Assembly: GCA_973895155.1 (NCBI GenBank)
Contig: OZ316892.1
Coordinates: 26,373,233-26,437,232 of the forward strand
Origin: Marsupella aquatica
Lineage: Eukaryota > Plantae > Marchantiophyta
Length of the DNA: 64,000 nucleotides
Direction of reading: 5' to 3'
In this document: one piece after another, positions 15,177-57,768 of the stretch
How positions within the stretch are numbered: the stretch's first letter is position 1
Layout: the number at the start of each line of letters is the position of its first letter
Position numbers and translations under genes: made by a program
Notes under the pieces: generated by a model
Database searches by the model: none
Seen by the model: the letters and a program-made list of their open reading frames with translations, nothing else
Told to the model about the DNA's origin: nothing

Positions 15177-15354
15177 ACGTCTTGGGAGGGTTCATAACAT
15201 TGTCTTTTCCTTACAAGTTCCTCCGCGGGAAGTTCAAGACAGTAGGGCCAAAAGACCCTCCCCCTAATGCAAGGGTTAACTAGAACTAAGCCGTAGCCGA
15301 TAAGCCATCGGATGGAGTACTCATATAGAGACATTTTCTTGGTTAACTCTATAT

Positions 15355-24612: not shown

Positions 24613-24624
24613 GCTCTGATACCA
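24613..24624 (-). other. Copia primer-binding site (tRNA-iMet)
   Basis: Minus-strand TGGTATCAGAGC, 2 nt after the 5' LTR. Confidence 0.95.
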
Positions 24625-24626
24625 AT

Positions 24627-24952
24627 TGTGGGGAGAAATCAGATCAGGAAAAACACTCCAAACATACACGTGCTCAATAGTTACGTGGTTCGTCTCAAGG
24701 TTGGCTACGTCCACGGGAAGACCAAGCTTTATTAACGGTTATGTGTCTACTCAAGCATCACCATAGCTCCCATCTCTTCAAGCTCTCATCTCTTGCTATA
24801 TCACTGTGTTCTCTCTTGAGAACTATCTTGTATGTTCTCACACCACATACAAGTTGAAGAGATAAGGACCAATCTCTTCAACTAGGGTTAACACTCTAAC
24901 CCTAGTTAACATACTAACCATAGTTCAACCCAAGACTGAGTTAACCTCTACA
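24627..24952 (-). repeat. Copia 5' LTR
   Basis: 326-bp TG..CA repeat matching 14835-15160; followed on the minus strand by the PBS. Confidence 0.95.
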
Positions 24953-26115
24953 AGGCAAAGGTTGGAAAGGTTCTGGCCCTTGCAGTCCCAACCTTTCAGA
25001 AACAAACCTCTTAAAAAGAACATTCAGATCAAGGAGTGTGCATGCACCACTAACGCAAGGACCTTTGCCAGAAAGCAAAACACAGACACTTCATTTTCAC
25101 ATGATTGTTAATTAACAATTGCATTCTAAACCTGTGTATAATGTCATTGTCGACAGAACAAAGTGAAATAATACTAGTGAGATTCAAACCTGGATTTGAG
25201 AGTAAAAGTGATCCAAGATAATATGGCCGTCATGACCAAATATACAAGAAAAATGTAATCAAGCAATAATACATACAGAGAGGCTTGGAGCGCTTGGTCA
25301 TGGACCTTGGTACTGGGAGGTGCTTTGGTTAGGGAGTTCTTCCATGTCCCCCGTTTTCACTCCCTAACTCAACCTTGCAAAGGTGTGCAGTGCATCAAAA
25401 GTGTTAGCAGTACACTCCCATTGCCTCACCCTCTTTGGAAATAATGGGGTACTGCAACCATAGGGTGTGAATGGAAAATGAGGCTTAGGGTATACTTATA
25501 GTATTTAAATAAACACTTTTTGCAAGTTATGGCTATGTAATTTTTAGAGCATTTATTTTATAAAGGCTTGGCACACCTTGCTTTGAGGAGGGAATTATGC
25601 AATGGTCAATCTAGGCATTTGTAACTCAAACGGAAAAGTTGAACCATATTAAGCAAAATGGCCTAAAATACTGGTATTTTGAGTCCTTATTTCTTTACAC
25701 ACTAAATAATCCATTATCTTAACTTCAGTGAATTTATTTTTTCTTGTTTCTTTCCAAAATTCACTCTCAAGATTTTAAGGATGTAGTAAAAGTCCTGTTT
25801 ATAGAGCATTGTTGGATATAGTGCCTCCAAAAATGAAAGCTTCAACTCAAGTTAGGAGAGGCTATTGTTTCCCATAATGCTCTGATAATAGGACCTTAAT
25901 ACACTTTAAGGCCTAGGAGATTTTTATTCTTACTATTTTAGTAAAACTAAAGAAGAATCTTCGATTCCTAACTAGGTGATCCAAACCTTAACTGGGCATT
26001 TATCTCCAAGAATGCCCCTGAAAATACAAAGAAAAAACCACGAAGAGCATTAAGTAAGTTAAAACATCTTGGGAAAATGTCTTCTCCAACTTGGGCTAAG
26101 CTTTGGTTTTTGGTA

Positions 26116-30896: not shown

Positions 30897-31665
30897 AATT
30901 CCCCCCCCTCCAAACTCCCCTCCAAGAGCAGGCAGGGTCGAAAGGCTTCCCGGGGATTGTAGTGTCTCTCGATCAGCTCGTTCTTGAGCAGCAGCACCAG
31001 TTATCACTGAATCTTAAAAGCTGAAGCGTCACTGGAGACTGAGATGTGAAGAACCCAGTACAAAATTGCAATGTTTGATGCAAATGAGAGAGCTGGGACA
31101 GCGATGGAGGAGCGATGGAGGACTGCTGCTGCTGCTGCAACGTCTGGGATTTGAGCTCCGCATTTCCCGGTGACTCGCAGAGGTTCTGGATTACGGTGGC
31201 TTTACAAGAACTTGGGTACGCGGTTCCGTTTTTTCTATGTGTGAGATGCAATCGTAGCCATTCATATGTGGGAACAGGCGACACTGCACTTTACATAAAT
31301 TTGGGGGGGACTTGGGGGCACAGTAAAACAAAACCATTACCTACCCGTCATATGTCGGTATGTCACTTTTTGGGGGTTGGGTAAGTGGATATCCAAATAT
31401 GACATATACCTTCCATACCACACTACTTATTTTCTTTAAATCAACTAGCCGGATTACCTCTTTACTTGATTACCTGGTTCCTTGAACCTAAAGACATATG
31501 AAGAAAAAAGTCTTGCACAATAATATTTCTATGCTATTTGGTTAATACTCATTTGAAGTGTTTTTTTTAGATTCATGATCACTTTTGTCTGGGGTTACTG
31601 TTTAGAGGCTTCACTCTAGATCCTAGGCCCTTAAGAATAGACTTAGTTGGTGCAAGTGCCCACCA

Positions 31666-31841
31666 TGTCGTGACATATAGTATCGTAGCCATAGTGTATC
31701 GAAAACATACAAGTCACCGGCAAGGCATATGTGCAAGCTGCTAGCAACCAACATGCATAGAAAAAATCCAATCACATTCACAAGTGCCAAGAAAAAGCAA
31801 ATGAAGTGGTATGTACGTAGTGGAGGTGTAAACCTCTGTAT
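31666..31841 (-). repeat. Repeat A, terminal copy (176 bp)
   Basis: Matches 32202-32377 with 2 substitutions; forms the ...CACGACA 3' end of the element. Confidence 0.95.
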
Positions 31842-32199
31842 ATAAAAGGCGTGATAGAAACAAGTGTACTGAAATCGAATCGAAAACCGGCGGGATGCCA
31901 AGATCGGCCGGGAGCATCTAACGAATCACTGTGTGAATCCCGTGTACGGAACCGACGAGCACTGTCTGAGCTCTGTCAACAGCGATTCAAGAAGAACTGA
32001 AAACCCACAAAGAAAGACATGCCCTAAGCCAGCAAAGTCCTGGCGTCACACTAACAAGCACATTTGCTTCAAGAACGGCCCAGACTTGCTACAAGAACAT
32101 GTCACTAACTCAGGTAGTACACTAGCCTTAACTACATACCTAGCGGGCAGGCGAGGGACATGCCGATATGCATAAGAGGCACTGTCCCTCGGCATGACA
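31842..32199 (-). repeat. Repeat B, internal copy (358 bp)
   Basis: Matches 41076-41428 with about 3 substitutions and one 5-bp indel. Confidence 0.95.
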
Positions 32200-32201
32200 G
32201 C

Positions 32202-32377
32202 TGTCGTGACATATAGTATCGTAGCCATAGTGTATCGAAAACATACAAGTCACCGGCAAGGTATATGTGCAAGCTGCTAGCAACCAACATGCATAGAAAA
32301 AGTCCAATCACATTCACAAGTGCCAAGAAAAAGCAAATGAAGTGGTATGTACGTAGTGGAGGTGTAAACCTCTGTAT
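32202..32377 (-). repeat. Repeat A, internal copy (176 bp)
   Basis: Directly follows the G11 tract on the minus strand; separated from B by the dinucleotide GC (32200-32201). Confidence 0.95.
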
Positions 32378-32388
32378 CCCCCCCCCCC
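32378..32388 (-). other. Polypurine tract (G11)
   Basis: C11 on +, about 30 nt after the pol stop codon and abutting repeat A. Confidence 0.75.
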
Positions 32389-32420
32389 AGACCACAGCCA
32401 AAAGGAGGGCTGAAGAAAAT

Positions 32421-35400
32421 TTAGGTAGCACGTGGAGCACAAGAAGGGCAAAACCATAACCCTTCTGGCACCTGGGTAAGTTCAGGCCGAAGGCAAAAAA
32501 GATGGTACCCTCCATTGCAATTGTCACACAGCAGCATCTGGTCAGCATCATCAATTCGCAAACACACCTTGCAAGGGTAGTCCACAGGTGGAATCCAAGT
32601 AGAAGTCACAATGGTGGGATCTAGGTTAGGCAGATGACAAGGGGCGCAATTCTTGGCATTGTCAGCAATTGTGCGCCCATCTGCCCCTTGTAACTCTAGC
32701 ACTCCAGACGGTCGAATAGCTTTAACCCTGAGAATAGTACGACTGGTAGAGGTGTCCAGGGTATCGTTAGCTTGCCGCTGCAAGTTTACAAAATCTCCCA
32801 CATCAAACTTCCTGACCTTGGGCTGAAAAGTGCCCCCTCGTGTGTGTGCATAACGCAGTGTGTCCCTGTGCTGTGCAATGGCCAAATTCTCCATGGCCAT
32901 GGGCATAACCCTCCTGAATAGGGCAGCCCTCTCAGAGATCACATCAGACCAAGTCACAGTTGAATCCAAGTCCACCACCTGAAGCATGTGAGCAGCAATA
33001 GCAGAAGGTGGAACTGGGTGACGACCAAACAACAAGAAGTAGGGAGAAAAGTTAGACAGTGATGCATGTCTGGACATCCTATACCCCATGGCAATGTAGG
33101 GTAAGGCCAGGTCCCAATCCTCCTTGTTTTTGGTGAGGCAGATCTTCCGGAGGCCCTTCTTGCATGTCTGAACCATGCGCTCTGCCAAGCCATCTGCCTG
33201 TGGGTGATCTCGTGATGTCCGGCGATGATCAATAAGGGCCTGATCAAGCAGCTCCTGGAACTCTCCTCTAAACTCTGAGCCCTGGTCAGTGAGACATTCT
33301 GCACAAGCTCCAAAGCGGCTGAGAACTTGTTGTAGGAATGCCTGGCTGGTGCTACGGGAGGTCTTATCCGGCAATGCCACAAGTTCTATCCACTTGGAGA
33401 AATGCTCTATCATGATCATGATGTAGAGATTACCCCGAGATGTGAGGGGTAATTCTCCAGCCAGATCACATGACCAACGATAAAACATGCCCTGAATAGG
33501 GAGTGGGTGAAGTGTGGGTTGCCGAGACGTGAAAGAAGTCCTTACCCTATCACACTGCTCACACCGAGCAATAACATCTTGAACCTGGCCATGCATGCCT
33601 CTCCAATGATAATGAGGGACCAAGAGGCTGTAAGTCCTCTTAACGCCAAAATGACCAAGCTCAGAATGTACCTTACGAATAAGGCCAACCCTCTCATGAA
33701 TGGGTGGAACCACCACTTCCCTATCTGGCAAGCAGCGCACGAGATGATCTCCCTTCCACAAGTAGCGCTTGGACCTTTGTTGAATTCGGTCTCTCTGGGT
33801 TGCAGTAACATGTATGGGGTACTCCCCATGCTGCAAAAATCTCAGAGTGTCGTTGTCCTCCCATATGTCCACCACAGGTTGGTCAACAATGTAGCATGGC
33901 AGCAAAGCAAGATAGGTAGATGCATGAAATGTAGGCAGGATGGAAACCTGGTCAAAATCCTGCCGTGCATCTGAGGGATCATCAGAGGCAATCAAAGGGC
34001 TGCGGGACATAGTGTCAGCATTTTGATGTGTCACACCAGGCCTATGAATTACCTCAAAATCATACTCCTGGAGTATGAGCGCCCAACGAGCAAGCTTGCC
34101 AGTAAGCTTGTCGTTGGTCATCAACCACTTCAAGGGCTGGTGGTCGGTGTAGAGAACAAACCTGGTCCCATAGAGGTAGGGCCTGTAATGTATGACAGCC
34201 CACACAACAGCAAGGCATTCACCCTCATAAGAAGAATAATGACTCTCTGCCTGATTGTTGCTCCTGGATGCATAGGCAATGACGTACTCCTTACCTTCCT
34301 CATCATGCTGGCCCAGAATGGCACCAATCCCAAGGGCACTCCAATCTGTGTGTAGCACAAAGACCTTGCTGAAATCAGGTCTTCTCAGCACCGGGTATTC
34401 TGAGAGCTTCTCCTTCAAAGTGGCAAATGCTGCCTCAGCATCTGTACTCCATGTCCAAGTCACATTCTTTTTCAACAAAACATACAATGGGTGTGCAATG
34501 GTACTGAAATCTTTGATGTAGATCCGGTAGTAATTGCACAACCCAATAAAACTCCTCAAAGTGTGAACATCGGTAGGAGTGGGCATTTCCAAGATGGATA
34601 CCACCTTGGCCCAGTGAGCCATGGTTCCATTTGGAAGAATGCGATGCCCAAGATATACAACTGATCTAACAGCAAATTCACACTTCTTGGGGTGTATCTT
34701 TAGGTTCACCTTCTTAAGCCTCATGAATAGCTCCTCAAGGTCAAGTAGATGTTGGTCAAATCCTTTGCTGTGGACCAACACATCATCAATGTAGCATTTC
34801 AGAAACTCAGCACCTTGAAGAACCTGGTCCATGACTCTTTGAAAGAATATGGGCGCATTCTTCAAGCCAAATGGCATCACCAACCACTCCCATAGTTGGT
34901 TACTACCATGGAAAGTTGTTTTCTTGCGGTCCTTTGCAAGCAGCAAAATCTGGTTAAAGCCTTGCCTTAGATCCACAAGACTGAAGATGTCTGAGTCTCC
35001 AATGCTGTCAAATAGCTCCTCTGGCCGTGGCATGGGGTACCTGTCCTGGGGTGTGACCAGGTTCAGTGGCCTGTAGTCCCCACATATGCGCTTCTCTGTC
35101 CACAATCCACTGGAATCCTTCTTTGCTGGCATCACTGTAGCTGCTGCAAAATCTGATGTAGAGGGCTGAATAAGACCAGCTTCATAGAGCTCTTGGCATC
35201 TCTCATCCACCAACTACCACTCATGCTTACTCAAACGGTGTCTCCGCCTGAAGATAGGTGTTTCATCAGCCAACTCAATGGAGAACTGCATAGTCTTGCA
35301 CTTACCCAAGTCCTTCATAGAGAAAGCAAACACATTCTCATGCTTGAGGAGCAAATTCAGCAGCTGGTCCTTCTGTCTTTTACTCAGGTGGTTGCCCATG

Positions 35401-35486
35401 ATGAATGTGTAGTTGGCAACACTAGGAATAGGACCTGATGTACTCGTGCTGGAAGAGCCAGAAGTGCCAGCCTCTCCACTGTCCAA
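32421..35486 (-). CDS. Gypsy-type RT, RNase H, DDE integrase and PHD finger (930-aa open stretch; one stop at 35214 upstream)
   Basis: RT: RICGDYRPLN, MPFGLKNAP, YIDDVL. RNase H: HTDWS, YEGECLAVVW, TDHQPL. Integrase: HHCC motif HSELGH...CEQC, core CDLAG / TDQGSEF / ERMV. C-terminal PHD: CKVC...LLCDNCNGGYHLFC...WFCPSC. Confidence 0.95.
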
Positions 35487-35714
35487 TTAGCTGCTAGCAT
35501 GCTGCTGATAAGGTGATGAGGCCTCTCCAAGGCCTGCTGTATCTGTTGCTCTGGTCTGATCCACACCATGAAACTCAGAAATAATGTCAGCCACATTACA
35601 AGGGACCTCCTCCCCCCCAACACTGGGACTGAAGTGGTGAGTGTTGGACAAAGGTAAGTGCACCTGGTCTGGATGCCATGTAGCAGCACCATGGAGTGGT
35701 AGAACTGGAACTCC

Positions 35715-37100
35715 TTATGCTGGAGGAATGGACATCTGAAAAAGGATGCAAGTGACCAGAAGCCAAGTGAGAGCATTAAGATCCATTACCCTGCCAAGTA
35801 AAGCATTCCTGGCCAGCCTGGTGGTTTTGGTGTGGCCCGTAGTACCGGGTTGGAAGCCCATAGCCCGTTCTCTCTCCTCGGGACTAGGTTCATCCCATGT
35901 ACTGGTAGAATGTCGATAAACCAGGCCAGGACCATCACCCTGAAAAGCATGTGCACCTGGAAATGATACAAATGTAGGCCAAGCAGCACGGGGCTCTCCA
36001 ATGGTATTGGCTGGATACCAAGGTGCTGGCTCTTGCCGGGTAACTGGTTGGCAAGAACTGTCAGGATCCAAAATCTGGTCCACTGTGAGGTTAGTGTCCC
36101 TGGATGTGTGGTGAAGAGCTAACTCCAGCAAGGAATGTGGTGCAAGGTTAGTCCAAAAGTTACGAAGACGATGTGCATAAGAGCCACAGTGCACTGCATC
36201 AATGAGAAGGGGTGGCCCCAAGTAGTGCTGGACCACACTGAAATCCTCTTTGACCTGTGGACGCTGGTCAAACTAAGATGGAGTATTCTCAATGATGTAA
36301 CCAACAGCAGGATAAAGGGATTGAGCCCAGGTGAGAATCTGAACCAATGCTGTGAAAAGGCCAGAACGAGAATCATGCAGTCCAGCACCGTGACCAGCAA
36401 CTGAAAACCCTTGGCATTCCCAACCAGCTATGATCAAATCAAGGGAGCCAAGAAGGGTTAAGTGCCGGTGCTGGACAAGCTGGATATCTGGAGGAAAGAA
36501 AGAAAATGCAGACTTCCATGCACTGTGTGGAAACTGCTGGGGAAATCGCTCTGAAAATTCCAGCAGACGGGATTCAGCCACTTGCCTTGCACCTGGATCA
36601 ATATCCACATAGATGTACAGCTTCACCACCATGCCAGACTGTAGGAGAGCTTCCAGGCCTGTAGAAATGCCACCAAAAAGCTCAAGCAATGTAAGGTCAT
36701 CTGAAGGAGGAGTCCATGTAACTGGTGCGCTCAAGATTGGGGCTATTGGTTGGCCATGGTGCTGCCCAAGATCCTCAAATTTGCGCAATGCAGCCACCAA
36801 AGGTCCATGGGCTGCTTGGAGCCGTTGTACCACCTCTAGTCGATGATCCACGTTGCTGGAAAGTGCTGCTATATGTGCAGCAGCATGTGCAGTAGCCACC
36901 TCATCATCATCCTCCTCAATCCAATCCTGCAATGGGTGGTTGACATAGGTAGTTGTGTGCACTGCTTTCAACACACAGTGGTGAGCCATAGGTGTATGGG
37001 CACCATGCAAATCAAGTGGAATGTAGCCCAAGTGTGAGCCATTCGTATGCCAATCAACTCTGTAGTATGCATGCTCATGCCAGTTGTCAATGGTAAAACC
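35715..37100 (-). pseudogene. C5 cytosine DNA methyltransferase domain (DNMT3-like, non-permuted) in the pol frame
   Basis: Motif I LELFGGISTG, II YVDID, IV IAGWECQGFS, VI IENT, VIII AHRLRNFWTNL, IX ERERAMGF, X RNALLGR. Same frame as RT. In-frame stops at 36273, 35715, 35487 and 35214. Confidence 0.9.
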
Positions 37101-38284
37101 TGTGGGAACAAAGCCTCCTGGCCAATGAGCACATCATACGTAGTGACATTGGTAACCAAACATCTGACTGGGAAATGCAATTCCTGATCTGTACCTCCAT
37201 TAAAAGTGAGAGTGAGTAAAGTGGAACTCTCACCCAGCACATCCTCCACAGTGCCACTAGCAGTCCGAATGTGCCACTTGGATTGCTGTAAATGATCAGT
37301 CAACAATCCCATCTTCTTGGCAAACTGAATGCCCAATATCACTGGTTGAGCACCTGTGTCTAGCATGACCACTTGAGGAGTGTGACCTTCCAACTTGACC
37401 ACTGAATTCCTATTGTCAACAATGGCAATGGTGGTGGAAACTGAAGTCCTATCACTAGGTACCACTCTCGGCAAATGATGAGGTACCTTGTGAAGGGAGT
37501 TAGTGTCCACGGTCTTTCCACTCAACAACATAGCCAGGAAAGATGGAGCAGCATGACCAGAATCAAGTGTAGCTCTGGTCACACAATCAGCAGCAATTGG
37601 TACTGGGGCAGCCAAACCAGTGGAAACATGTAAAGGAGAAGAAGAAGGTCCAGTATGTACATGAGATTGGACCTCCAAAATCGGTGTCACAGGGGCTGAT
37701 GAAGAATGCAGTGAACCCTCTAGCGCCCTGAGGACAGCTCTAGCATCCAGCTGTAAATCATGGCAACTGAAAAGTGGAGTTGTAAGAATCCTTTGTGCCA
37801 TACCGGAGGTGAAATGCTCAAGTAGCTCAGGAGAAACAACTCCCTGTGAAATGTCAGCAGCACCTGGTGGTGGAATGGATGTAGCTACAGCTCCCTCCCC
37901 CCTCGCCAACAAGGTGCGCTCTTCAGCAAGTGTGAGTGGCTGAAAAGATTGGGGCAAGACAGCCCAAGCTCCCCTGGCTCTAGTCATAGGACCGGCAGCA
38001 AGACCATCAGCCTGTACAATGCGGCGTGTGGGAGCAATACGGGAGGCAGAATGAATCTGAAAATTCTGCTGTAAGGCCAGGCTGGGGAGCAGAGGACAGC
38101 ACACACTCACCCATATGAGCATCAAATGGCAAGCCATAGAAAGAGCGGGGTAGAGGTGCTGAACTGTCAGTGGTGCCTGGGCTAGGAATGGGTTGCACAT
38201 GACCAGCCGGTTGAGAAGGACCAGCAGAGGCAGTTGACTTGCCTTTGATGTTGACAAGTTGGGCATGTAGGGACTCACCCTCAT
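36968..38284 (-). CDS. Aspartic protease region of the Gypsy-like element
   Basis: VMLDTGAQPVILG, IRTASG, YDVLIG. An apparent 1-bp deletion near 37103 disconnects it from the continuation GFTIDNWHEHAYYRVDW in the DNMT/pol frame. Confidence 0.85.
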   Translation of the reverse strand: MRVSPYMPNLSTSKASQLPLLVLLNRLVMCNPFLAQAPLTVQHLYPALSMACHLMLIWVSVCCPLLPSLALQQNFQIHSASRIAPTRRIVQADGLAAGPMTRARGAWAVLPQSFQPLTLAEERTLLARGEGAVATSIPPPGAADISQGVVSPELLEHFTSGMAQRILTTPLFSCHDLQLDARAVLRALEGSLHSSSAPVTPILEVQSHVHTGPSSSPLHVSTGLAAPVPIAADCVTRATLDSGHAAPSFLAMLLSGKTVDTNSLHKVPHHLPRVVPSDRTSVSTTIAIVDNRNSVVKLEGHTPQVVMLDTGAQPVILGIQFAKKMGLLTDHLQQSKWHIRTASGTVEDVLGESSTLLTLTFNGGTDQELHFPVRCLVTNVTTYDVLIGQEALFPQVLPLTTGMSMHTTELIGIRMAHTWATFHLICMVPIHLWLTTVC

Positions 38285-39752
38285 GAGTCAGAGACTGGAG
38301 TTGAGTGGCCTGTGTGTTGTGAGCCTCCTTCTGAGCTGGTGGCTTTTGTTGCTGCTTGGGCAATTTGTTGGCACTGGTTGCTTTGCCACTGGAAGGAGGA
38401 GCAACTGATGCAATAGGAGCCCTCCTAGCTGGTGGGGGAGTGGAAACAGGAGCAGAATGAGTGGCCTGTTGTCGTAGCTGCTTCCTCTCTGGGAATTTGG
38501 CAAAACAAACTGCCTCCAAGTGGCCCACTTTCCCGCAAAAATCACAAGATAGGTCCTTAGCAACAATATCACATTCATTAGCCTTGTGATTAGGATTGCC
38601 ACAGTAGTTGCAAGATGGCAGCATGAAAGCAGCATGTGCTGGTTTGGTCTTGGAAGCATACTGTGGCACACGGGAAGGGGTGGCCATTGTAGGAGCAGCA
38701 GCCTGGTACCTAGATCGCGGTGGACGCGCAATACTGGCCTCATAATGTGCATGGGCCAACTCAAGTTTCTCAGCAGTGTCGTAGACATTGAGCAATGTGT
38801 AGCTGTCTCCAAACTCTGAGAATACTTGCTGCAACACTTGTGAATGGAGAGCTGGTGTGCCCTCCAATGCACGAAGATAGCGATGAGCAGCTTCCAGGTC
38901 AGTGATGCTCTGGGTGTCCTCCTTCAGCTTAAGAAGCCGGCGATACATCATCTTCAAGGTTTCATCGTGCTGCCTCACAAAGGTCGCCAACTGCATGATT
39001 TTGTCAGCACTCTTGATTGGGAATTCCAATTCAAGAACCTGGAAAAACTCAGCCACTGGATCAGCAAAGGCAGGGGAATCAATGGTGGGAGAAATGCCTG
39101 ATGTAGCCTGTGCCAAGATAGTGGGAGTAATTGGTGTAGTGGTAGGAACTAGAGTAGGAGGGGAAGTGGCAGGAGCAGCAGCATGGGCTGCAATGGCATT
39201 CTGTAATGCCAATTGTGAGGCAGCCGCAATTGCACTGGCATAGGCAGGGTTAGGCAATTGTGTGACAGTAAGCAGCCGTTGAGAGTGCTGCTCATACACA
39301 TCCAAAGCCTCATGATGCACATACCTGGCTAGCTGCTTAAATGCAAAAGCATTTGTGAAATTGCTGCCATACTTCAACTCCAATTCGTAAACGACAGTGT
39401 AGAAAGTGGATTTGAACTCATGCAAAGAAACAGTGCCTGGCCGCCTGCTGAAGCGTTCAATGCGGCCAGATGAGTGGCTGGCGTCCATGCTGTATGTCGG
39501 TGAAGCAGGGACAACCACGGATGCAGAAGGGGTAAATGGCAATGAAGTGATAGCAGGCTTGGGAGTAGTGGTGAAGCGACCGCCAAATGGAGCAGAAGGA
39601 TTGCGTGGTGTGGGTGCTACTGCTGTCTGTGGACGTCGTCGAAATTGCCGAGACTCCAATGAAATTGGCACCAATGGTCGTGGATCACTCCGTAAATGGT
39701 ACCTGGGTGTCGGTGGTGATGTGCTGCTACCTCCTGGCTCGTCAACTAACAT
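38007..39752 (-). CDS. Gag-like protein with two CCHC zinc knuckles
   Basis: 581-aa ORF with CNYCGNPNHKANEC and CDFCGKVGHLEAVC (CX2CX4HX4C); lies upstream of the protease. Confidence 0.88.
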   Translation of the reverse strand: MLVDEPGGSSTSPPTPRYHLRSDPRPLVPISLESRQFRRRPQTAVAPTPRNPSAPFGGRFTTTPKPAITSLPFTPSASVVVPASPTYSMDASHSSGRIERFSRRPGTVSLHEFKSTFYTVVYELELKYGSNFTNAFAFKQLARYVHHEALDVYEQHSQRLLTVTQLPNPAYASAIAAASQLALQNAIAAHAAAPATSPPTLVPTTTPITPTILAQATSGISPTIDSPAFADPVAEFFQVLELEFPIKSADKIMQLATFVRQHDETLKMMYRRLLKLKEDTQSITDLEAAHRYLRALEGTPALHSQVLQQVFSEFGDSYTLLNVYDTAEKLELAHAHYEASIARPPRSRYQAAAPTMATPSRVPQYASKTKPAHAAFMLPSCNYCGNPNHKANECDIVAKDLSCDFCGKVGHLEAVCFAKFPERKQLRQQATHSAPVSTPPPARRAPIASVAPPSSGKATSANKLPKQQQKPPAQKEAHNTQATQLQSLTHEGESLHAQLVNIKGKSTASAGPSQPAGHVQPIPSPGTTDSSAPLPRSFYGLPFDAHMGECVLSSAPQPGLTAEFSDSFCLPYCSHTPHCTG

Positions 39753-41063
39753 GCTGCATGCTCACCTGGGTGCCAATGGGAAAGAAACTGACAAGAAAAA
39801 GAAATGGCAGCCCCAAGGCTAGGAAATAAATGGTGTGAGCAGAAATGTGTCGAATGTGCAAACACACAGAAAAACCGTTGGCAAAGAAAAGACCCTTCAA
39901 AACTCCAAGTGTACTGGTGTTGTGCTTGCGGGATTGACTGTCTGATGAACATGCCGGGCCCTCAGCTTTATGCAGATGACACGTGGCGGCAGCAAAGAAA
40001 TCCAGAAAAATGGGCCCTTAAAAACGTAAACCTGGGCCCCCCTTAAGTGTATACATCTCGGCCCGATGTGGAACCGGAAAAAGAAACGGCAAGGGAGGGA
40101 GCGATTAGGGCCCAAATTAAGCCACGGGCTCAACGCCCTATGCGGATCACGAAGCGAAGGGTGAGGCAAGGCGAAAAGTAAAGAAACGGCCCCCTTAATG
40201 ATGGCTCGAGCCCTGCATAGGGCTTTGCGCCACCTCCTGGCTCCTCATGTGCTCCCGAAGAGAAGGGAGCGACTAACTCCCCTTCCCCTGCTTTAATTGC
40301 TTATTAGGGCCTCGTGCCCTCTCCTGGCACTCTCGCTCCCCCTCCTCTCCTGCTTTAATGAATGCTTCTGTGCCTGGCAGAGTGGCAGAAGGACTCCAGG
40401 GAAAGGAGTCGAATGTAACCCCCCCACTTTAATCCTCCATAGGGCCTCGTGCCCTCTCTCTCTCAGCTCTCGCTTGTACTCGCTCCCTCTCCCCTATTAA
40501 GTGTTGGCAACCGGGGGAAAGGAAATAAAACGGCGAGGGGGAAAGAAAGAAAACGAGTCCTAATCGAGTGGAGGGCACGATGCCCTATGCGCGTACCGGC
40601 GAGCAAAAGGAAAAGAAAACGGTAAGGGAAGGCTGTCGCCCCCGATGTGTATACACATAGGGAGAAGGGCGCAGTACAAACACAGCCGCGAGGCGGCAAT
40701 AAACCTGGCGTGCGACCCTTTACGGGGCTCCGAGCAAGAGTAAAGGCATCGACCTGCCACCCGTGGCTTGTAGCCGGCCGGAAGGTAGCATGGCGCAGGG
40801 AGGCGCTGAAGCAGCAGTTGGCAGCGGCCGGAAATGGAAAACCTGAAATCGAAGCGCGAAGGAAAAAAGTGAGGGGGGGGGGGCCTGTTTGACTTAAGTG
40901 TATATACTTAAGTGTATACACAAAAGCCATAACTTCCACCCCATCGCTCAATGTTTTTCCATAGAAATTGCACCGGCATCAGCGGAAAAGCGTCAACTGT
41001 CTCGAGCAATTGAGAAGCACAGCGTCTCCGATCTTCTTCCCTTCACCGCTAACCCGGCGACAA

Positions 41064-41077
41064 AGTTCTTCTTGAAT
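41064..41077 (-). other. Putative self-priming primer-binding site
   Basis: Perfect 14-bp reverse complement of 41214-41227, at the inner edge of the 5' repeat B; no TGG tRNA-type PBS there. Confidence 0.75.
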
Positions 41078-41428
41078 AAAAGGCGTGATAGAAACAAGTG
41101 TACTGAAATCGAAAACCGGCGGGATGCCAAGATCGGCCGGGAGCATCTAACGAATGACTGTGTGAATCCCGTGTACGGAACCGGCGAGCACTGTCTGAGC
41201 TCTGTCAACAGCGATTCAAGAAGAACTGAAAACCCACAAAGAAAGACATGCCCTAAGCCAGCAAAGTCCTGGCGTCACACTAACAAGCACATTTGCTTCA
41301 AGAACGGCCCAGACTTGCTACAAGAACATGTCACTAACTCAGGTAGTACACTAGCCTTAACTACATACCTAGCGGGCAGGCGAGGGACATGCCGATATGC
41401 ATAAGAGGCACTGTCCCTCAGCATGACA
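41076..41428 (-). repeat. Repeat B, 5' terminal copy (353 bp)
   Basis: Begins TGTCATG on the minus strand; homology to the internal copy stops exactly where A would begin. Confidence 0.95.
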
Positions 41429-42664
41429 ACCATATGTTATCACATTTTTTATGTGTGATTACAGTAAAGTCTTTCTTTGCCCATGTGTGTATGCTTTTTT
41501 GTTAAGAACCTAGACCTCATCTTTAGAAGGTCTAAAAGAATGAGGCAAATGGCTGCTTGATTTCAGGGAGTTGCATTTATTGCTTCCAGACCTGACACAT
41601 TTTGGTAAGAAGGCCCCGGTCTAGACTTGCCCGACAAATAGAGCCTTCAGAGGCCGTCAAAAGGCAAGTCGGTACCCAGACCATCCCAGTCTCCAGATCC
41701 TGGTCTCGATGTCATCTTCCCAGCCTGGCCCGGCCATGACCTCCCAGCCCGAGTTCCTCTCTCTCTCCCCCTCCCCCGGGCCCCATCCCCTGGTCTTGCC
41801 CCCATTTTGACTCCCCCGGTCCCAGCCCCAGCCCCTTCCCCCGGTCCCCCCCTTTATGTATGGTACTCCCGGCCCAGGCCCGGCCCAGGCCCGGCCCACC
41901 CCCGCCTGACCCGGACCCGGACCTGGCCTCCCTCCCCTCACCCGGCCCGGCCCTGGACGGGGCAGGCCGGGTCCGGGGCCAGGTGAGGGGAGGGGCCGGG
42001 CCGGGTGCCAGGCAGGGCCAGGTCCGGGAGGGGAAAACAGGCAGGGTCCGTACGAGGCCGGGTCTTCGCCAGGACGAGTTCGAGCCGGGCCGGGGAATAA
42101 GTGCGGATATCCATCAAATAGAGGCTTTTTAGTTTGGCAAATGCAGAGTTTACATACCGGGCAACTCGGCAAGTTGCCCTCACTAAGGCCCCCTGGGCAT
42201 TGAATTATAGTAATAATGTTATCTTGATCGTGAGATAGATATAAAGGGGTCATTGTGCACCGTTTCCACGCCCAATACGTCCCTCTCTTGACATCCAATT
42301 ACCAGGCCAACTCACTGACTTCCCGTTGTGTCAAAGTGCCTGGCCATTTAGCATATGTTAGTCAACATTTCAACATCACTTACCATCAACAATCGTGTGC
42401 AACACACAAGCATCGGACACTCTAAAAATAATAATTTGCAATTAAAATCTGCTAGGCATGACCTACATCATAATTTCTCTGCAATAGAAAATTTTGATAT
42501 GTAGACCATGCTTGTGAGTATGGGTGCACATGGGAGTTTGGGCAAGGGTAACCCTTCATGTGCATATGCCACTGGTATTTGAGGTAGTTTACTTTCAAGA
42601 GCCAAACAAAGCAAAATCTTAATAACAAATTGAGATGAGAAGGTTCAGATGTAGGCTTCGAGAG

Positions 42665-42940
42665 TGAAGCCTAGATCAGTTGGCCAGGGGATTAGCCTGG
42701 AATAGAGAGGTCCCAGGTTCAATCCGCTCTCCACATCAAGGGTTGCGGAGGGTGAGGGTGATATGTGTGTGTGTGGGGCCGGGGGGGGGGGGGTAGCCGG
42801 CTTTGGTCTCTGGTCCAACTCTCTCTCCCTCCAGGTATGACCCCCCTTGTGGGCTTCCTTACAGAGGTGCATGCTCTAGAGTTGATTGTTTATCCTCTGA
42901 TGTCTGGCTGGGTCAACTTTTGATTTCAAAACACACAAAT
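42665..42940 (+). mobile_element. tRNA-derived SINE, copy 1
   Basis: Pol III box A-like TAGATCAGTTGG (~42672) and box B GGTTCAATCC (~42716). Body homologous to 57456-57768 (minus). A-rich end. Boundaries approximate. Confidence 0.75.
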
Positions 42941-44096: not shown

Positions 44097-45142
44097 GGCT
44101 AATGGGTCTGTGGCTAATCCAAGACCAAAAGTCCAGAAAACTCTAGCCAAATGTGGCTAAGACTATTCAGTGGTGGTGGGATTTGGCCAATTTATGGGCA
44201 TGGGAAGAGTGAAATTGAATTTGGGACCTATTGGTTCCAGACCCATCCCCTGGCCAGCTGACATCAGCCAGCTGGTTACTGTAGTACTACTACTGTTTTG
44301 AGTTGCTTCCCAGCACTCGGGTCTCTCCGTCACTCGCAGCTCACAGACATACACAAACTCCACAGTCCTCATTCGGCACCCAGAAAAGCAGAGAGTTGCT
44401 GGAGAACGATCACCAACCCGACCGCACATTTTGAGTGCAAGCCATTTGAGTTCAGTCGAGTTGAGTTGACTGAGCTCCACAGTCTTCAACTTGCTGATTG
44501 AGGAGGGGAAATTAGTGGAACGAGATTGAGTAAGTTGGTGAGAATGATGAAGGTTGTCAGTTTCTTCCTCTGATGGGAATGTGAGACTCGGATGAGAGTG
44601 ACGGAGGTTGTCAGGTTTCGTTGCATTGACCCTTCTGTGGGGTGGGCGAGGAGGACGGTGAGAACAAAGAGTGTGTTGATGCGGAAGGCCTGGCCCAACA
44701 ACAGCGTGGATTTGCACCAGATGGGTTGTGTTTGAGGCGATGGCGAAACTTTGAAACGCGCATTTGTCTTCGGTGCAGAGGGTGTCCTTGTTCGCTTCAT
44801 TTCGCAGAGTTTTTCTTCACTTGTGCAGGAATCAGCGGAGAGGGACGGACGGACGGATCGAAGAAACGTTGCCCTGGGAATGTGGGCTTGGAAGTGAATG
44901 GAGATCCTGCTGCAAGTTTACGATCTGGTTTACCCTACAGGTTGACAAGATGGGCGTCTTGCATTGAGCTGTTCCGAGTTTCTCATCAATGTGAAAAGAA
45001 AACAGGGCTTATGGAGCGTTTGAGGAGGATATTGGCGTTTGAGCAGATCGGAGGCTTGTAAAATATTGGTTTGTACAGGGATTTGAGGGATTTGGTCAGC
45101 TGAAGGGAACCCCACTTCTTCAACCTGCCTCCTGCCGATGAG

Positions 45143-46378
45143 ATGTCGTCTCTAGCCACTCTAATCAGCAGGGAGCTGGAGGGCTCGAGGTTGGAGGAGC
45201 AGCCCATGCTGCGCTTCGGTCAGGCTGGGCAGTCGAAGAAGGGAGAGGATTTCTATCTAGTCAAGACACGTTGTCAGAGGACTCCTACTGAAAACACTTC
45301 CTCGACCTTCAGCGTGTTTGCAATATTTGACGGCCACAATGGACGGGCGGCCGCTATATATTCGAAGGATAACGTTCTCAAGAATGTTCTCAGCGCAATA
45401 TCTCCTGGATTGAGTAGACAGGAGTGGTCAGCAGCGTTACCTCGAGCTTTGGTTGCTGGATTCGTGAAGACTGATAAAGAGTTTCAGAGTGAAGAGCAAT
45501 CGTCCGGGACAACCGTCACGTTTGTGGTTGTGGACGGATGGACTGTTACTGTGGCTTCCGTTGGGGATTCTCGTTGTATAATTGAATCTCAGGGCGTCAT
45601 TTCTTTGCTTACAGTGGATCACAGACTCGAGGTAAATGAGGAGGAGAGACATCGAATTAAATCGAGTGGCGGTGAGGTGGGTAGACTTAGTACTGTTGGG
45701 GGTGCTGAGATTGGCCCGCTGAGGTGTTGGCCTGGTGGGCTTTGCTTGTCACGATCTATTGGTGATTTGGACGTCGGGGAGTTCATTGTCCCAATACCAT
45801 TTGTCAAGCAGATCAAGCTACCATCTGCAGGAGGCAGGATTGTGATAGCATCTGATGGTGTTTGGGATGCTTTGAGTTCTGAGAAGGTGGCTAGAAGCTG
45901 TAGAGGGTTGTCTGCTGAGCTGGCAGCCAATCAGGTTGTGAAGGAATCATTGCGCTGTCGAGGATTGAGGGATGATACCACCTGTGTGGTGGTGGACATT
46001 CTTCCCCCTGTGAATGCAGTGAGTTTTGCAAAAAGGAAACCACAAAAAGGCTTTCTTGCATCAGTGCTCAGAACTCAATCTGGCAGGTTTTCTGGAAGAT
46101 CTGCAAACAGAATGATGGAAAGTGGCAAAGTGGAGGAAATTTTTGAAGAAGGTTCTGCTGCACTCTCTGAAAGGCTGGGACCTGGGAATTCGGTGCAGGG
46201 GCTGGAACAGTTAGTGTGCGCTGTTTGCCAGGCAGCCATCACACCAAGTGAAGGGATCTCAGTTCATGCTGGAACGTTTTTCTCCACTTGGGAGGGTCCT
46301 ATCTTGTGTGTAGACTGTAAGCGAAAGCAGGATGCCATGGAAGGTAAATCCGCAGTCTCGAGGATGAGTGGAGCGTAA
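45143..46378 (+). CDS. Protein phosphatase 2C (PPM family), 411 aa, single exon
   Basis: KKGEDF, AIFDGHNG, SGTT, VGDSR, TVDHR, LCLSRSIGD, IASDGVWD, GLRDDTT; C-terminal CAVCQ...CVDC pair. Confidence 0.96.
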   Translation: MSSLATLISRELEGSRLEEQPMLRFGQAGQSKKGEDFYLVKTRCQRTPTENTSSTFSVFAIFDGHNGRAAAIYSKDNVLKNVLSAISPGLSRQEWSAALPRALVAGFVKTDKEFQSEEQSSGTTVTFVVVDGWTVTVASVGDSRCIIESQGVISLLTVDHRLEVNEEERHRIKSSGGEVGRLSTVGGAEIGPLRCWPGGLCLSRSIGDLDVGEFIVPIPFVKQIKLPSAGGRIVIASDGVWDALSSEKVARSCRGLSAELAANQVVKESLRCRGLRDDTTCVVVDILPPVNAVSFAKRKPQKGFLASVLRTQSGRFSGRSANRMMESGKVEEIFEEGSAALSERLGPGNSVQGLEQLVCAVCQAAITPSEGISVHAGTFFSTWEGPILCVDCKRKQDAMEGKSAVSRMSGA

Positions 46379-48939: not shown

Positions 48940-50871
48940 TCAAACATTCGCGACCCGATGTAGCATATCCGCCTCTCTTAAGATCTCCGAGCTCAATTCG
49001 CACAGCTTCTTATACTCAAATTTGGTAAGAGACGGGGAATGCTTTACTCTCTCCCACACCTCACGCCCAATGGCCGAGAAGTCCTCTAGCGTGGGAGCAT
49101 CCTCTGGTGCGGGAGAGGGAGGCCGAGGCGCCAATAATTCGGCAGGGGAATTGGGAGGGCATCTAGTATCCACATTGAACTTCACTGCTTTCTTCCTGCC
49201 ACCGCTACCACAGCGCGCGACTCTCTCCGGGGCTCCTCCTGTACCATGAGCTTTACCTGTGCTGCCACAACGCTGAATTACTTTCTCCGAGGTTCCAGCA
49301 CTATGTGTTTTGCCCCTGCTGCCCCAACGCTGAAGTCTCTGAATTATCTCCGGGGCTCCAGCACCATGGGCTCTACCTATGCTGCCCCAACGCTGGAGTA
49401 TGTGAATTATCTCCGGCGCTCCCGCACCAGGAGCTTTGCCAATGCTGCCACAACGCTGAAATCTCTCCAAGGTTCCTCCACCGTAAGTTTTACCTCCGCT
49501 GCCACAACGCTGAAATCTCTCCAGGGCTCCTCCACCGTAAGTTTTACCTCCGCTGCCACAACGCTGTACTCTCTCCAGGGCTCCTCCACCATTAGCTTTA
49601 CCAACGCTGCCACACCGCTGAACTCTTTCCGGGGTTCCTGCACCATGAGCTTTAACTGAGCTGGATTTCCTCCTCTGTCTCCTCCTCGCCTTGGCCCTGG
49701 CTTGAATTGAATTGAGCACAGAAACCCATCGTTCATTGGTTCCTCGTTCATTGGTTCCCCGTTCGTCGTTGTCAGATACCCAAAAACTAAAATTGGAAGA
49801 AGTCTTATTGCTGTTGAACTTATTTATGGTCTTGTCTATGGCCTCCTCTATGTTCTGATTTTGCTGTACCCACAAGTTTTCAGCCTTCCTGGGCTTCTTA
49901 GGTTCCTCCCACTGACTCGTGGTGAACTTGTCCGTAGTCTCAGATGTGGCCTCCTCGTGTGTATTATGACGTACCCACAAGTTTTCAGTTTTGCTGGGGT
50001 TCTTAGGCTCCTCCCACTGACTGGTGGTAAACTTGTCGGTAATCTCAGCTACGACCTCTTCTTGTTGGTTCTGCTCTTCCCTCAGGTTCTCAATCTGTCT
50101 GGGCTTAGGCTCCTCCCACTTATTGTGTGTGAAAATGTTGAAGGTCTCAGTTATGCCCTCCTCAGCTGGAATTTGCTGCACCCACAAGTTTGCAGGCTCG
50201 CTGGGCTTCTTCGGCTCTTCCCACTCATCTGAGTCACCAGCACTAACACTCTTAGCCAAATCTTCATCCACATCTCCACCCTGCTCTCTTCGTGCTGCGG
50301 ACGAGTTGAACACATTGCGTCCTCCTTCTGTGTCGTGGTAGCCACTGCTGCTCGTACTCACCATCGAGATGTCGTTCTCTTCGAGAAATACAAAAGCATC
50401 TCGAGCTGCTGCTTTGGCAGCTGACTCGGCGTAAGACTTGGCCACTGCCTCCATGGCATGGACGTCGAATCCCTTCAGCAAAGGAGATGCGAGGTAGGAG
50501 GCAAAAGAGTAGTCCCCTGTGCATAATTGGTTCACATGATGGACTCTGTTCCTTGCATTCGCTCCTCCTAGGAACATGTCCAATGTGGTGACGCAGTTGG
50601 AGACCATCGCGGTGTTGTTATTATCCCTGGACCTGGACCTGGACCTGTTGCCTCGCTTGCAGAAGAGAGACCCCAGGGCACCCAAATCCCCCACATCAGC
50701 TGAAATCCGGGGAGGGGTAGGAAATTCGAAGCTGTAGCGACCGCTCGGATTATGACTCTCGCCCTGTGAGCTCACACATTCAGGCGTACAAAACCCTTCT
50801 TCGTCGTCGTCGGTAACGTATTGGTCATGGTGGTGGTGGTGACCATGACCAACAGACAAGCACAGCCCCAT
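48940..50871 (-). CDS. Unknown 643-aa protein with putative N-terminal lipid anchor and two internal repeat arrays
   Basis: Long ATG-initiated ORF starting MGLCLS followed by a His tract; 4 x WEEPK..NL repeats and 8 x (Q/A)R(C/W)GS repeats that keep the reading frame. Confidence 0.75.
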   Translation of the reverse strand: MGLCLSVGHGHHHHHDQYVTDDDEEGFCTPECVSSQGESHNPSGRYSFEFPTPPRISADVGDLGALGSLFCKRGNRSRSRSRDNNNTAMVSNCVTTLDMFLGGANARNRVHHVNQLCTGDYSFASYLASPLLKGFDVHAMEAVAKSYAESAAKAAARDAFVFLEENDISMVSTSSSGYHDTEGGRNVFNSSAARREQGGDVDEDLAKSVSAGDSDEWEEPKKPSEPANLWVQQIPAEEGITETFNIFTHNKWEEPKPRQIENLREEQNQQEEVVAEITDKFTTSQWEEPKNPSKTENLWVRHNTHEEATSETTDKFTTSQWEEPKKPRKAENLWVQQNQNIEEAIDKTINKFNSNKTSSNFSFWVSDNDERGTNERGTNERWVSVLNSIQARAKARRRQRRKSSSVKAHGAGTPERVQRCGSVGKANGGGALERVQRCGSGGKTYGGGALERFQRCGSGGKTYGGGTLERFQRCGSIGKAPGAGAPEIIHILQRWGSIGRAHGAGAPEIIQRLQRWGSRGKTHSAGTSEKVIQRCGSTGKAHGTGGAPERVARCGSGGRKKAVKFNVDTRCPPNSPAELLAPRPPSPAPEDAPTLEDFSAIGREVWERVKHSPSLTKFEYKKLCELSSEILREADMLHRVANV

Positions 50872-53800
50872 GCTTGTTGGAGCGTCACCAACCCACCTTC
50901 TGCTTGCTTTCGCCTTCTGTTGCTGCTATCGGTGGCAGTGCCCCCCAATTCCACTTCACTTCGTCCTTCTGCATTGGCCTGAAAAGCCACCTTTTTCACA
51001 CCACGCCCCTTCTACATTTGTATCAATTGACACTTCTACAACTCACCTCGCAATTTGAGTGCACATCGGAAAACTGTTGTGTGGCTGAGCAGAATCTGTG
51101 GGTTCTTTCATTCGACTTGGTCGACTCCAGAGGACTACGTTGGACACTATCTTATGAAAACAGTGTATCGACCAGATCTGGTATTCCAGATAATGCTCTG
51201 CTGCAACATCCAAGGCGAGACGGAGAGCTCGGTCACTGTGCGGAGCAGTGCACACATTTTGACTGTGAAGTATCTGATGAACAATCCAATCTTCATCAAT
51301 AATTTGGAGGCAGGATAGAGCACATTTGGTTACAGCATTTGATCATCCATCCACTCTAGTACCTTTCGAACTGAAATCTGTGTCATGCCATCGCCTCGAA
51401 CTTCCCAACAAAGAAAAATTGAAGCAAAACAACAATTGTGCATCACTTTGAAATTGAGCTGGCCAGAATGACGTAATAATTTGTTCGTTCTATTTGAGTC
51501 CCGTCGCTTGAAGCCGCCACCACGGTCTGCACAATGAGGTTCCCCGCATCCACTCGATGCACAGAAGAGAAGAGTGACCGTTGAGGAACAAGGGACTACT
51601 ACTGGATCGTTGCAAAATACCTCTTCGTCGTCAATGACTCTCAGCTCCTCGCCTCCTCCATTATTAGCTCGTCACTCGAAGCCCACCGCCCCAGATGTTG
51701 CCCATCGTGCTGCTTGCTTCCATGCCCACCGCCACATCTCCACAATCACAATCGCCCCGAGACTTGACTGCCCGACGAAAGGATTGGTGCTCAACAAGAA
51801 TCGCGAAGGAGGAAAGCACAGAGGAGGAGGAAGAACAGCATCAAAAGAAACCGAGGAACAACCAGCACGGGCAGCAGAGTCGCTACAACAGAGCAGGAAG
51901 AACCGCAAACGGAAATAACAGAAGGGTCGATTGATCGAGAGCCTCGAGAGGAAGAGTGAAGAGTCCCTGAACCTCTCAGGAGAAGGTGGAGGGGGGAGTA
52001 GGTGAGCTCATGAGGTGGGAGGTGAGGTGGGGGTGGGGAAGGAATTGCGGTCGACAGATTCGCAATGATTACAGACTACACGTAACCCGACTGGCGATAA
52101 AGACTCAACGCAGCAGCGATAAATTAGCGGGAGCCAAAAATTTTTAAAACAGGGGACACCAATTGCAACAGTAAAGTCCGACTAAAAACAGGGGATCTCC
52201 CTTCCAACAGTGAACTCGTAGTGCGATTCCTCTGTTTTTTGTGGAGACACAGGTGAAACCGGAATGCAGACTATGAGGCTACGAGGGGGGCGACCGACCC
52301 CTCCAAAACTGCGACCCGGGTTTCATGAACCCTCACCTTCACGGCTTCACCGCTGGATTGTCTCCTAGAATCCTGGAAACACTCTCGGCCGTCCGTTTTG
52401 GTGGGGGTACGGTATCCTCCCTTCCCCGGCTGGGATGGGAATGCCATTTACTGCGCAGCCGGTTTCTCTCAATACTGACTGGCAATAGCCCGCACTAAGA
52501 TACTCAGACTGCTATAACAGGTCATCGCCGGTTCACTGATGTTGCAGACACGACGTTTCATGTTTGTGTTTTGGACGAGATCGGCGATGTCCTGTTTGCG
52601 ACGTTCTGGAGGGTGACGTTGACGTATCGTGTAGAGGAATATGGGCTATAGCCGGTAGCGAGGAGCCGACCGTCCCCGAGTAATTGAAGACGTGGAGATT
52701 GCTGAACGTTGATTGTTGGCTCGCGTATCTTCAGGAGTCGATTGCGGGTCGGTAAAATTTCTGAGCGTTAGAGCAATCAATCGGCCGAACGGGATGTGCT
52801 ATTTTTACTCACGAGCGAGCGTCGCGGAATCGCGGATGGTAGTCTCATAATGATTGAGGAGGAGCTGACGCAGTGACGCCTTCGCCTCATCACTCATCAA
52901 AGTCTGACGCCGCTGCCAACTGGAATTCACCGCCGAGCATCATTATTTGACCTATCAAGTTTGTCATCCATCTATGCGAGTGATTGGGAAGCGCCTTCTT
53001 TCTTTTTGGCCTTGAATGATTTCATTAAGTCATAGCATAGAGCGGGGCACCCGAAAAGGTGGAGTTGGGAATTCCTTCTTGCTTCATGGTGGAAACAGCG
53101 TCTTAGTCTGTACTGGTTCGAAAATCCTCACTATCTTTTGAAGAACGCTTCCATCTTCTGTTGAAGCCGAGATAGTCAGATAGGAATTGAATTCAATTGA
53201 AAGTACTCGCTTCAGTACTTTGCGGCTATCCAAAAACTGCCTTGATTCCTCTCTTCCACCCAGAAAAGTCCAGACGTTCAGAAATTCCCCTTGTTTTAGC
53301 GATGGAGCGGACTAAACTAAGCCCTACAAAACTACCCAAAAATGGCATAGCTGACTGCGAATTAATTTTACGTGTCCAATTGTTGCACGTCTGGACTGGA
53401 CGATACGGACAGACTCGCGCACATGTAGCCTGTCAGATCAATTAGATTGTAATTTCTATCCGCCCGCGCGGCAGCCCTTGTCAGAACGAGGAAGGTCAGA
53501 TCATTGTTAGCTCATTTGTTGTTGTGGCTCTGTGGGGGGCATTAGGAGTTTAGGACCCTAATGCGGTCTCCTCGGGGCCCGCGTTCTGCAGTCCCTCTAC
53601 TACTACTCTCTAGCGTTGGGGCCCTCCTGTTTGGGTGGACGCAGAATATCTTCACTTTATCAGCCGCAAAGACAATATCGTAGGTGCACATAGGGCATCT
53701 GGAGTTGTAGCCCATCAGACAAGCACTCAGTGTCCTGTAGAACTTGAACGAAGTCTCAGACAAAACGACAAGGACAAAATAATGCAGGGGAGGGACAAGA

Positions 53801-57455: not shown

Positions 57456-57768
57456 TTTTTGCCTTGGAACCAAAAGCTGACCCATCCAACAAAGTATATC
57501 TGTTCAACTCTGGAGCACACGCTTATGTAGGGTAGCCCACAAGGGGGGTCATATCCCAGACCAGGAGGGAGAGAGGGTTGGTCCAGAGCCCAAAGCAGAC
57601 CAGCCAGGGCTGAGGAGAAATCAGTACTCCCACCACTATACCCCACCACTACACCCCACCCACACAGTCACACACTCACCCTCCACAACCCTTGCATGTG
57701 GAGGGGGCTTTAACTTGGGACCTCTTGGTTCTAGGCTCATCCCCTGGCCAACTGACCACAGCCAGTTG
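57456..57768 (-). mobile_element. tRNA-derived SINE, copy 2, with A tail and long TSD
   Basis: Homologous to 42665-42940. A8 tail (T run 57453-57460). ~20-23-bp TSD GCACACAAAGGA(C/A)TTGACACTTT at 57433 and 57769. Confidence 0.85.

Follow-up and report, generated by a model that had tools for sequence, protein, structure and literature searches.

The element at 31666-41428 on the minus strand of the window, by which we mean the whole stretch of 64,000 nucleotides analyzed here, is probably a self-primed Ty3/gypsy retrotransposon in which the ends made by reverse transcription are joined and an internal palindrome is cut by the integrase for insertion, a reading based on sequence comparison to which we assign a probability of about 0.7. 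Self-priming by the element's own RNA is likely and well supported, with the start of transcription predicted at 41227. In a green-lineage clade comprising liverworts, mosses, Klebsormidium, Closterium and chlorophytes, we lean towards the view that self-priming, fusion of the cDNA ends and palindrome cutting constitute the only entry into the genome.

Coding content and clade membership

With gag, protease, C5-methyltransferase, reverse transcriptase (RT), RNase H, integrase and a PHD finger, the host element is of the Ty3/gypsy type; in the window copy, stops and frame changes interrupt the coding sequence. Its coding features are as follows.

38007 to 39761, minus strand: gag-like ORF of 584 aa, with a weak zinc-knuckle match below the Pfam cut-off
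36968 to 38287, minus strand: ORF with an aspartyl protease domain match
35715 to 37133, minus strand: C5 cytosine methyltransferase region (PF00145), with an in-frame stop in the window copy
32421 to 35213, minus strand: domain matches to RT, RNase H, an H2C2 zinc finger, a D,D(35)E-type integrase core and a C-terminal PHD finger

The domain order PR-RT-RH-IN is present, as in Ty3/gypsy. A PHD finger was found at the integrase C-terminus instead of a chromodomain, for which there was no match, and no tyrosine recombinase was matched in the 17 ORFs of the element. The methyltransferase lies inside Pol; its first piece matched P0078 at 66% and Klebsormidium P0057 at 41%, and it aligns with the latter through the catalytic Cys motif. 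This motif (window 36273-36740, minus strand; P0078, P0096) reads WECQG in the window and in the Closterium protein and WPCQG in Klebsormidium.

Among named proteins, those of the liverwort Calypogeia fissa were nearest, at 82% across half of the query; Klebsormidium, Closterium, Haematococcus and Riccia came next. A quick tree built from RT-RNase H (52 rows, SH-aLRT support, no bootstrap) placed the window within a 37-row clade (SH-aLRT 99) together with those liverwort and algal proteins, the Klebsormidium rows being database proteins and not the sequences of de Mendoza et al. On these protein comparisons, the element is a member of the KnitGypsy-Dnmt3 (streptophyte Gypsy-DNMT3) clade.

KnitGypsy-Dnmt3 of Klebsormidium nitens was presented with DIRS-like repeats and Gypsy domains in a figure legend (Fig. 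4c; de Mendoza et al. 2018, PMC5890265). The two share the Gypsy domain set, a Dnmt3-like methyltransferase inside Pol and DIRS-like repeats, and the Klebsormidium proteins stand in the same tree clade (99); they differ in that the window copy resides in a bryophyte-type host and not in a charophyte. In the accessible parts of PMC5890265, neither a mechanism nor a primer, tract, integrase site or target duplication is given, and the term 'PHD' is absent from its main text. Within the open-access literature searched, the name 'KnitGypsy' appeared in no other paper, and no account of the clade's priming or of a displaced integrase site was found.

Pairing of the predicted transcript start with a site next to the repeat

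The features at the 5' end of the element are listed below; those of the primer and its site are predictions.

41429 to 41432, minus strand: left 4-bp target-site duplication, TGGT on the element strand
41076 to 41428, minus strand: repeat A1, 353 nt, starting with the integrase-type TGTCATG, holding the predicted promoter and start, and ending TTTTAT without CA
41214 to 41227, minus strand: predicted self-primer, the first 12-14 nt of the transcript, with the A at 41227 as the predicted +1
41064 to 41077, minus strand: predicted primer-binding site, consisting of 12 nt outside A1 (41064-41075) and A1's last 2 nt
41076 to 41215, minus strand: predicted template of a 140-nt minus strong-stop cDNA, as deduced from the two arms

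An earlier note on this DNA had proposed that a perfect 14-nt pairing replaces the tRNA primer. The pairing is exact, since 41214-41227 (ATTCAAGAAGAACT) is the reverse complement of 41064-41077 at 14/14 positions, and it stops at 14 nt with no extension inward or outward. Read on the minus strand, the upstream arm AGTTCTTCTTGAAT begins at 41227, 202 nt into the 353-nt A1 (41428-41076), at the sequence TTTTC-A-GTT whose A is 41227, as had been described. Its partner begins 2 nt before the end of A1 and runs through the next 12 nt, the usual place of a tRNA site; the downstream arm does straddle the inner boundary of the 5' repeat, with 2 nt (41076-41077) inside and 12 nt outside. The absence of a TGG-type primer-binding site was likewise borne out, TCA standing directly after the repeat, in contrast to the neighbouring Ty1/copia element of the same window, which has an ordinary TGGTATCAGAGC primer site. 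When the upstream part of the repeat was shuffled with its dinucleotides kept, a pairing of at least 14 nt was reached in 1 of 20,000 shuffles, words starting up to 5 nt from the boundary, that is, an 11-position window, being allowed.

What the earlier note called the 5' repeat is one half of a split repeat (A-internal-B-A-B), and the arm has a second copy at 31985-31998, within the 3' copy of the repeat (A2). The placement of the U5 end at 41076 holds for the end of reverse transcription, and other copies branch at this boundary into the primer site or into repeat B, but it fails for the integrase end, because the sequence there is TTTTAT and not CA; the element is thus Tf1-like in priming and not in end usage.

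Conservation of the pairing in related families

The Tf1-like reading gains support from three sides: the pairing is kept in three other families, the sibling family has a TATAWA box, and the helix is predicted by folding. Compensatory changes, which the earlier note had expected among related families, were found as two substitutions, a matched 2-nt deletion and a wholly different 13-mer. In the sibling family (65-80% protein identity), AGTTTTTCTAGAAT pairs with ATTCTAGAAAAACT, and at the two positions that differ from the window both partners are changed. An alignment of the arms with 14 rows had 93.4% of its 196 cells paired, compared with 42-59% when the partners were slid. Formal covariation in this alignment is weak, as both changes are carried by a single row, that of the window: the two double-changed pairs were reached by 65/500 shuffles and the score by 13/500. 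The distant families provide what appears to be the stronger evidence. In L060 (46% identity), both arms are 2 nt shorter and the A2 arm matches the primer site at 12/12 positions, its own A1 arm having decayed to 10/14. In L155 (54% identity), from the other sub-branch of the tree, an unrelated 13-mer pairs 13/13 with the sequence after A. The two contigs L155 and L156 sit in a bin titled uncultured cyanobacterium, which likely reflects bin contamination.

A TATAWA motif was located exactly 32 nt before the first A of the arm in 37 of 40 sibling-family arms, A1 and A2 copies included, when 150 nt were scanned without a distance limit; no TATA box stands at -32 in the repeat of the window copy. 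In predicted folds of the 5' RNA, the helix had a probability of 0.98 at three of four lengths and 0.53 at the fourth in the window copy, and 0.90-0.99 in L018 and L036. Old copies break it, the pairing probability being 0-0.5 in the mutated L030 and the site being deleted in L046. The minimum-energy fold of 198 nt lacks the helix (z 0.19 vs shuffles), which is present in the centroid only. Tf1 has a U5-leader stem; a conserved stem of this kind, sought in three relatives, was not found, and it is predicted in the window only.

Within the window's family, no arm substitution was seen among the 40 rows listed of 66, and the positions just beside the arm vary. Contigs of three public runs that leave the end of A share the same 12-nt site and then continue with differing sequence. 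A de novo inverted-repeat scan of 62 loci, in which a perfect 10-mer was needed, recovered the true signal in six and unrelated matches elsewhere, and missed L060 and L155. The leader (39768-41063, 1.3 kb) is covered by related contigs far less than the coding part and therefore seems to differ strongly between subfamilies.

It is conceivable that the arms serve packaging, dimerisation or strand transfer and that priming is left to a host tRNA fragment or another RNA, half-tRNA primers being known from plant Ty1/copia lineages (PMC6317226). We consider this very improbable. The site changes in step with the internal arm across four families, which a conserved host tRNA would not allow, and in the sibling family the arm begins at the +1 predicted from the TATA motif. 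Moreover, TGG is missing, Rfam returned 0 matches on 40700-41500, and in the accessible text of PMC6317226 half-tRNA primers are found in Ty1/copia only. With ARAGORN, neither the window nor any of 47 loci yielded a tRNA gene.

Split repeats and the position of the integrase-type ends

Downstream of the coding region, the following features were identified.

32378 to 32388, minus strand: polypurine tract with 11 G, directly before B1
32202 to 32377, minus strand: repeat B1, 176 nt, starting ATACAG (no TG) and ending CACGACA
32193 to 32208, no strand assigned: internal integrase-site palindrome CACGACA-GC-TGTCATG, with a perfect 10-nt core GACAGCTGTC and a 2-nt spacer at 32200-32201
31842 to 32199, minus strand: repeat A2, 358 nt, with the second copy of the primer arm
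31836 to 31847, minus strand: A2/B2 joint TTTTAT/ATACAG, where the end defined by the primer site is fused to the end defined by the tract
31666 to 31841, minus strand: repeat B2, 176 nt, ending with the integrase-type CACGACA
31662 to 31665, minus strand: right 4-bp target-site duplication TGGT

The repeats are thus ordered A-internal-B-A-B. A is followed by the primer site and B is preceded by the polypurine tract; a G-run before the start of B is also the rule in relatives. A1 and A2 differ by three substitutions and one 5-nt gap, and B1 and B2 by two substitutions. The outer ends TGTCATG and CACGACA are flanked by the 4-bp duplication TGGT, and the palindrome between B1 and A2 is a copy of both outer ends, set head to head with GC between them. 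In the window's family, unrelated flanks start at the TG of A (12 contigs, run X1) and at the CA of B (17, 9 and 13 contigs). In relatives, the GC spacer of the palindrome decays to AC, GT or AT, as expected for methylated cytosines on both strands.

Since A2 and B2 jointly read TG...CA like a normal LTR, and since short-read assemblies collapse these repeats (L155), one might suppose an ordinary LTR element (LTR = A+B) whose 5' copy lost B, the split layout having arisen by rearrangement at a later time or as an artefact of the assembly. This is already contradicted, and we give it almost no credence: the tract stands before B1 instead of A2, nothing separates A from the primer site in 22/22 5' ends, and the layout recurs at about 20 independent loci, is found in both sub-branches of the clade and has been published for Klebsormidium. 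Furthermore, contigs of run X3, which may be the window's own source, match both outer insertion junctions with 0 differences.

Relatives were collected by a metagenome scan, from which 80 of 570 confirmed loci were kept, and by a genome scan, which gave two. Their layout was read by self-comparison of 67 loci, by reading of the joints and by pattern scans of all 80. Scans of viral contigs gave at first none and then 74 distant loci, which were uninformative on the ends. Contig depths summed over the element do not represent a copy number. In the sibling family, all 22 distinct 5' ends had the form flank-A-primer site, with B before A in none. At the 3' end, 20 distinct loci carried B-A-B and 22 a single B, forms of the type A-internal-B being about as many as full forms; two carried B-A without a second B, and one was not classified. 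L156 (54% identity) has B-A-B with the same core palindrome, and L060 has A...B-A plus a shortened B2.

The 4-bp duplication agrees at three or four of the four letters in 9/15 complete copies, compared with about 8% by chance, and at no more than two letters in the other 6/15; these 15 pairs leave out L041 and L060, and L002, L016, L020 and L029 were dropped as repeats of other loci.

Proposed joining of the cDNA ends and cutting of the internal palindrome

In the proposed route, reverse transcription would start in the manner of Tf1, from the first ~12 nt of the element RNA annealed to the site that follows repeat A. Reverse transcription would then yield a linear DNA of the form B-GC-A-internal-B-GC-A; as the primer site and the tract set the ends of the reverse transcript, this product would end in ATACAG and TTTTAT, neither of which is an integrase end. 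The cDNA ends would be joined without a template, either by host end-joining or by an end-to-end jump of the RT, before or just after strand transfer. Integrase would cut at the palindrome where the first B meets A and produce 2-nt overhangs, and the opened molecule would insert as A-internal-B-GC-A-B. The integrated form, in which A2 and B2 are fused and GC is missing from the outer edges, is as expected if integrase cuts after CA on both strands.

The joints of the relatives bear on the joining step. The A/B joint is exact in 10/19 relatives and altered by 1-3 nt in 9/19, including a gained G, which matches the tract, or a gained T, which matches the primer site (the 19 leave out L038, with an internal deletion of A2, as well as L017, L025 and L039). 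The spacer at the B/A joint measures 2 nt in 21/21 distinct joints, some of which were located by a pattern that assumes 2 nt, and the A/primer-site joints are plain in 22/22, 20 of which were chosen by a fuzzy pattern. Altered A/B joints set against plain joints gave a Fisher p of about 0.001, with counts entered by hand and some joints found by patterns that favour the plain form. Altered A/B joints could also be inherited instead of newly made. In the window's family, no indel is listed at the A/B joint, and one contig has one extra base there.

Two loci present the joint differently. The copy in L017 (13280-13300) ends at the end of A2 plus one G and continues into unrelated DNA without B2, a single case that would be expected if the cDNA ends were joined after integration with faulty repair. 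In L155, the start of B and the A-end/primer site (6941-6957 and 7413-7427) share the 7-mer CACTTGA, which could possibly help in joining two cDNA ends; the window's family shares only AT.

A different origin of B2 has to be weighed, in which self-priming is real and B2 and the A/B joint are templated in the manner proposed for Ngaro/PAT. The RNA would run through to B2, and the internal B/A junction would act as a splint that rebuilds the circle junction, which integrase then opens. Such templating fits the A-coding-B-A-B layout found in DIRS-type elements (PMC5890265, legends of Fig. 1e and 4c) and the 10/19 exact joints, and it accounts for the single orientation (mirror forms, 0/22). We nevertheless regard it as unlikely, given that a primer site after A1 and a tract before B1 would cause ordinary strand transfers to leave B2 uncopied, and that 9/19 A/B joints are altered, some with bases matching the tract or the primer site, at a constant length of the B/A spacer.

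Orientation counts against the joining route itself. A finished circle with two equal palindromes would be predicted to give the mirror form A-B-A-internal-B in half of the insertions, and this form was observed in 0 of 22 5' ends. Symmetric cutting of a finished 2-LTR circle is not supported on this count. Two explanations offer themselves: cutting may be confined to one of the junctions while synthesis goes on, or the mirror product may collapse into A-internal-B. The 22 single-B loci are allowed by the joining model, yet they are not predicted by it; single-repeat circles, later recombination or assembly collapse could also be their sources.

Comparison with known priming and insertion systems

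Self-priming per se is already known (Tf1/sushi, Tcn1, TAR), and the present signal adds one lineage. In Tf1, the first 11 bases pair with the site and RNase H cuts between bases 11 and 12 (PMC7175516), and self-priming in plants has been predicted for Tcn1 and TAR (PMC6317226). Like Tf1/Tf2 of S. pombe, the Tf1/sushi group and Tcn1, the element has Ty3/gypsy enzymes and a predicted first 11-14 nt that are complementary to a site past U5. Unlike Tf1/sushi, it carries a PHD finger and not a chromodomain, a methyltransferase, split repeats and a 4-bp duplication; its U5 and U3 ends are without CA and TG, and no two identical TG...CA LTRs lie beside the primer site and the tract. It also differs from tRNA-primed Ty3/gypsy elements in that the site begins with TCA and has no TGG-type match.

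The layout A-coding-B-A-B, with an internal B/A junction that copies the joined outer ends, is shared with Ngaro/PAT and SymbioDIRS-Dnmt3. Its enzymes set it apart from Ngaro/PAT, which use a tyrosine recombinase: the element encodes a protease and a D,D(35)E-type integrase. It also has a polypurine tract, and its outer edges bear TG/CA and a 4-bp duplication. Two further candidates were discarded: Troyka, which by the accessible part of PMC12440569 is unrelated, and Phygy, which does not fit because the duplications do not have the form NCGN (PMC6317226).

As regards the cutting step, tetramers of HIV-1 integrase can cleave the palindrome at the 2-LTR junction (PMC1905944; PMC4372172), cleavage of retroviral 2-LTR circle junctions by integrase is also described in PMC1180852, and in abutted-end circles of the IS3 family a DDE enzyme opens the end-to-end junction (PMC3219604). 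The proposed route would resemble both in its substrate, a palindromic junction of two ends in double-stranded DNA, and in the DDE type of the enzyme that opens it. In retroviruses, junction cutting is a side route and the palindrome is formed from the cDNA ends, whereas the palindrome of the element is fixed, inherited and internal, at a distance of 176 nt from the tract, and the route would have left its mark in all full copies.

The self-priming signal fixes the end of reverse transcription, which differs from the site where integrase acts. Insertion by joined cDNA ends and an internal cut is usually considered a dead end. Joined-end circles as integration precursors are an old question of retrovirology, reportedly raised by a circle-junction model of 1984. 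If the proposed route is true, the clade would be a natural system with an obligatory joined-end route and countable marks in every copy. It would also explain the split layout that one figure legend of 2018 noted without a mechanism, and would link integrase elements to the split-repeat design of Ngaro/PAT. In the genomes of bryophytes and algae, LTR finders that seek two TG...CA repeats will overlook these elements, which occur in high copy number, or set their boundaries wrongly.

Other features of the window

The Ty1/copia element lies at 14835-24953 (minus strand), with 327-nt LTRs that are 98.8% alike and several stops, and three near-identical 52-nt tandem copies adjoin its LTR at 14650-14805. 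Its RT gene is interrupted by a 4.07-kb insertion (15989-20053, minus strand) that starts with TG, ends with CA and has a 5-bp duplication, GTATC, as judged by eye. In this insertion, no terminal repeat pair was found; it holds a GC-rich repeat block (19402-19712) and ORFs of 250 and 199 aa without Pfam matches, and is perhaps a large solo LTR.

A dispersed, SINE-like repeat occurs at 42676-42929, 44214-44275 and 57464-57769, its copies being 68-84% alike and having a stretch that resembles a tRNA B-box (GGTTCAATCC); ARAGORN called no tRNA on this repeat. Three open frames lacking Pfam matches, with lengths of 282, 240 and 217 aa, lie at 26603-27451 (minus strand), 61888-62610 (plus strand) and 44163-44816 (minus strand), respectively. 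A further open frame of 661 aa (48940-50925, minus strand), likewise without a Pfam match, is composed of tandem units of 54/63 nt and about 105 nt, and an uninterrupted frame of 424 aa at 45104-46378 (plus strand) contains a PP2C phosphatase domain.
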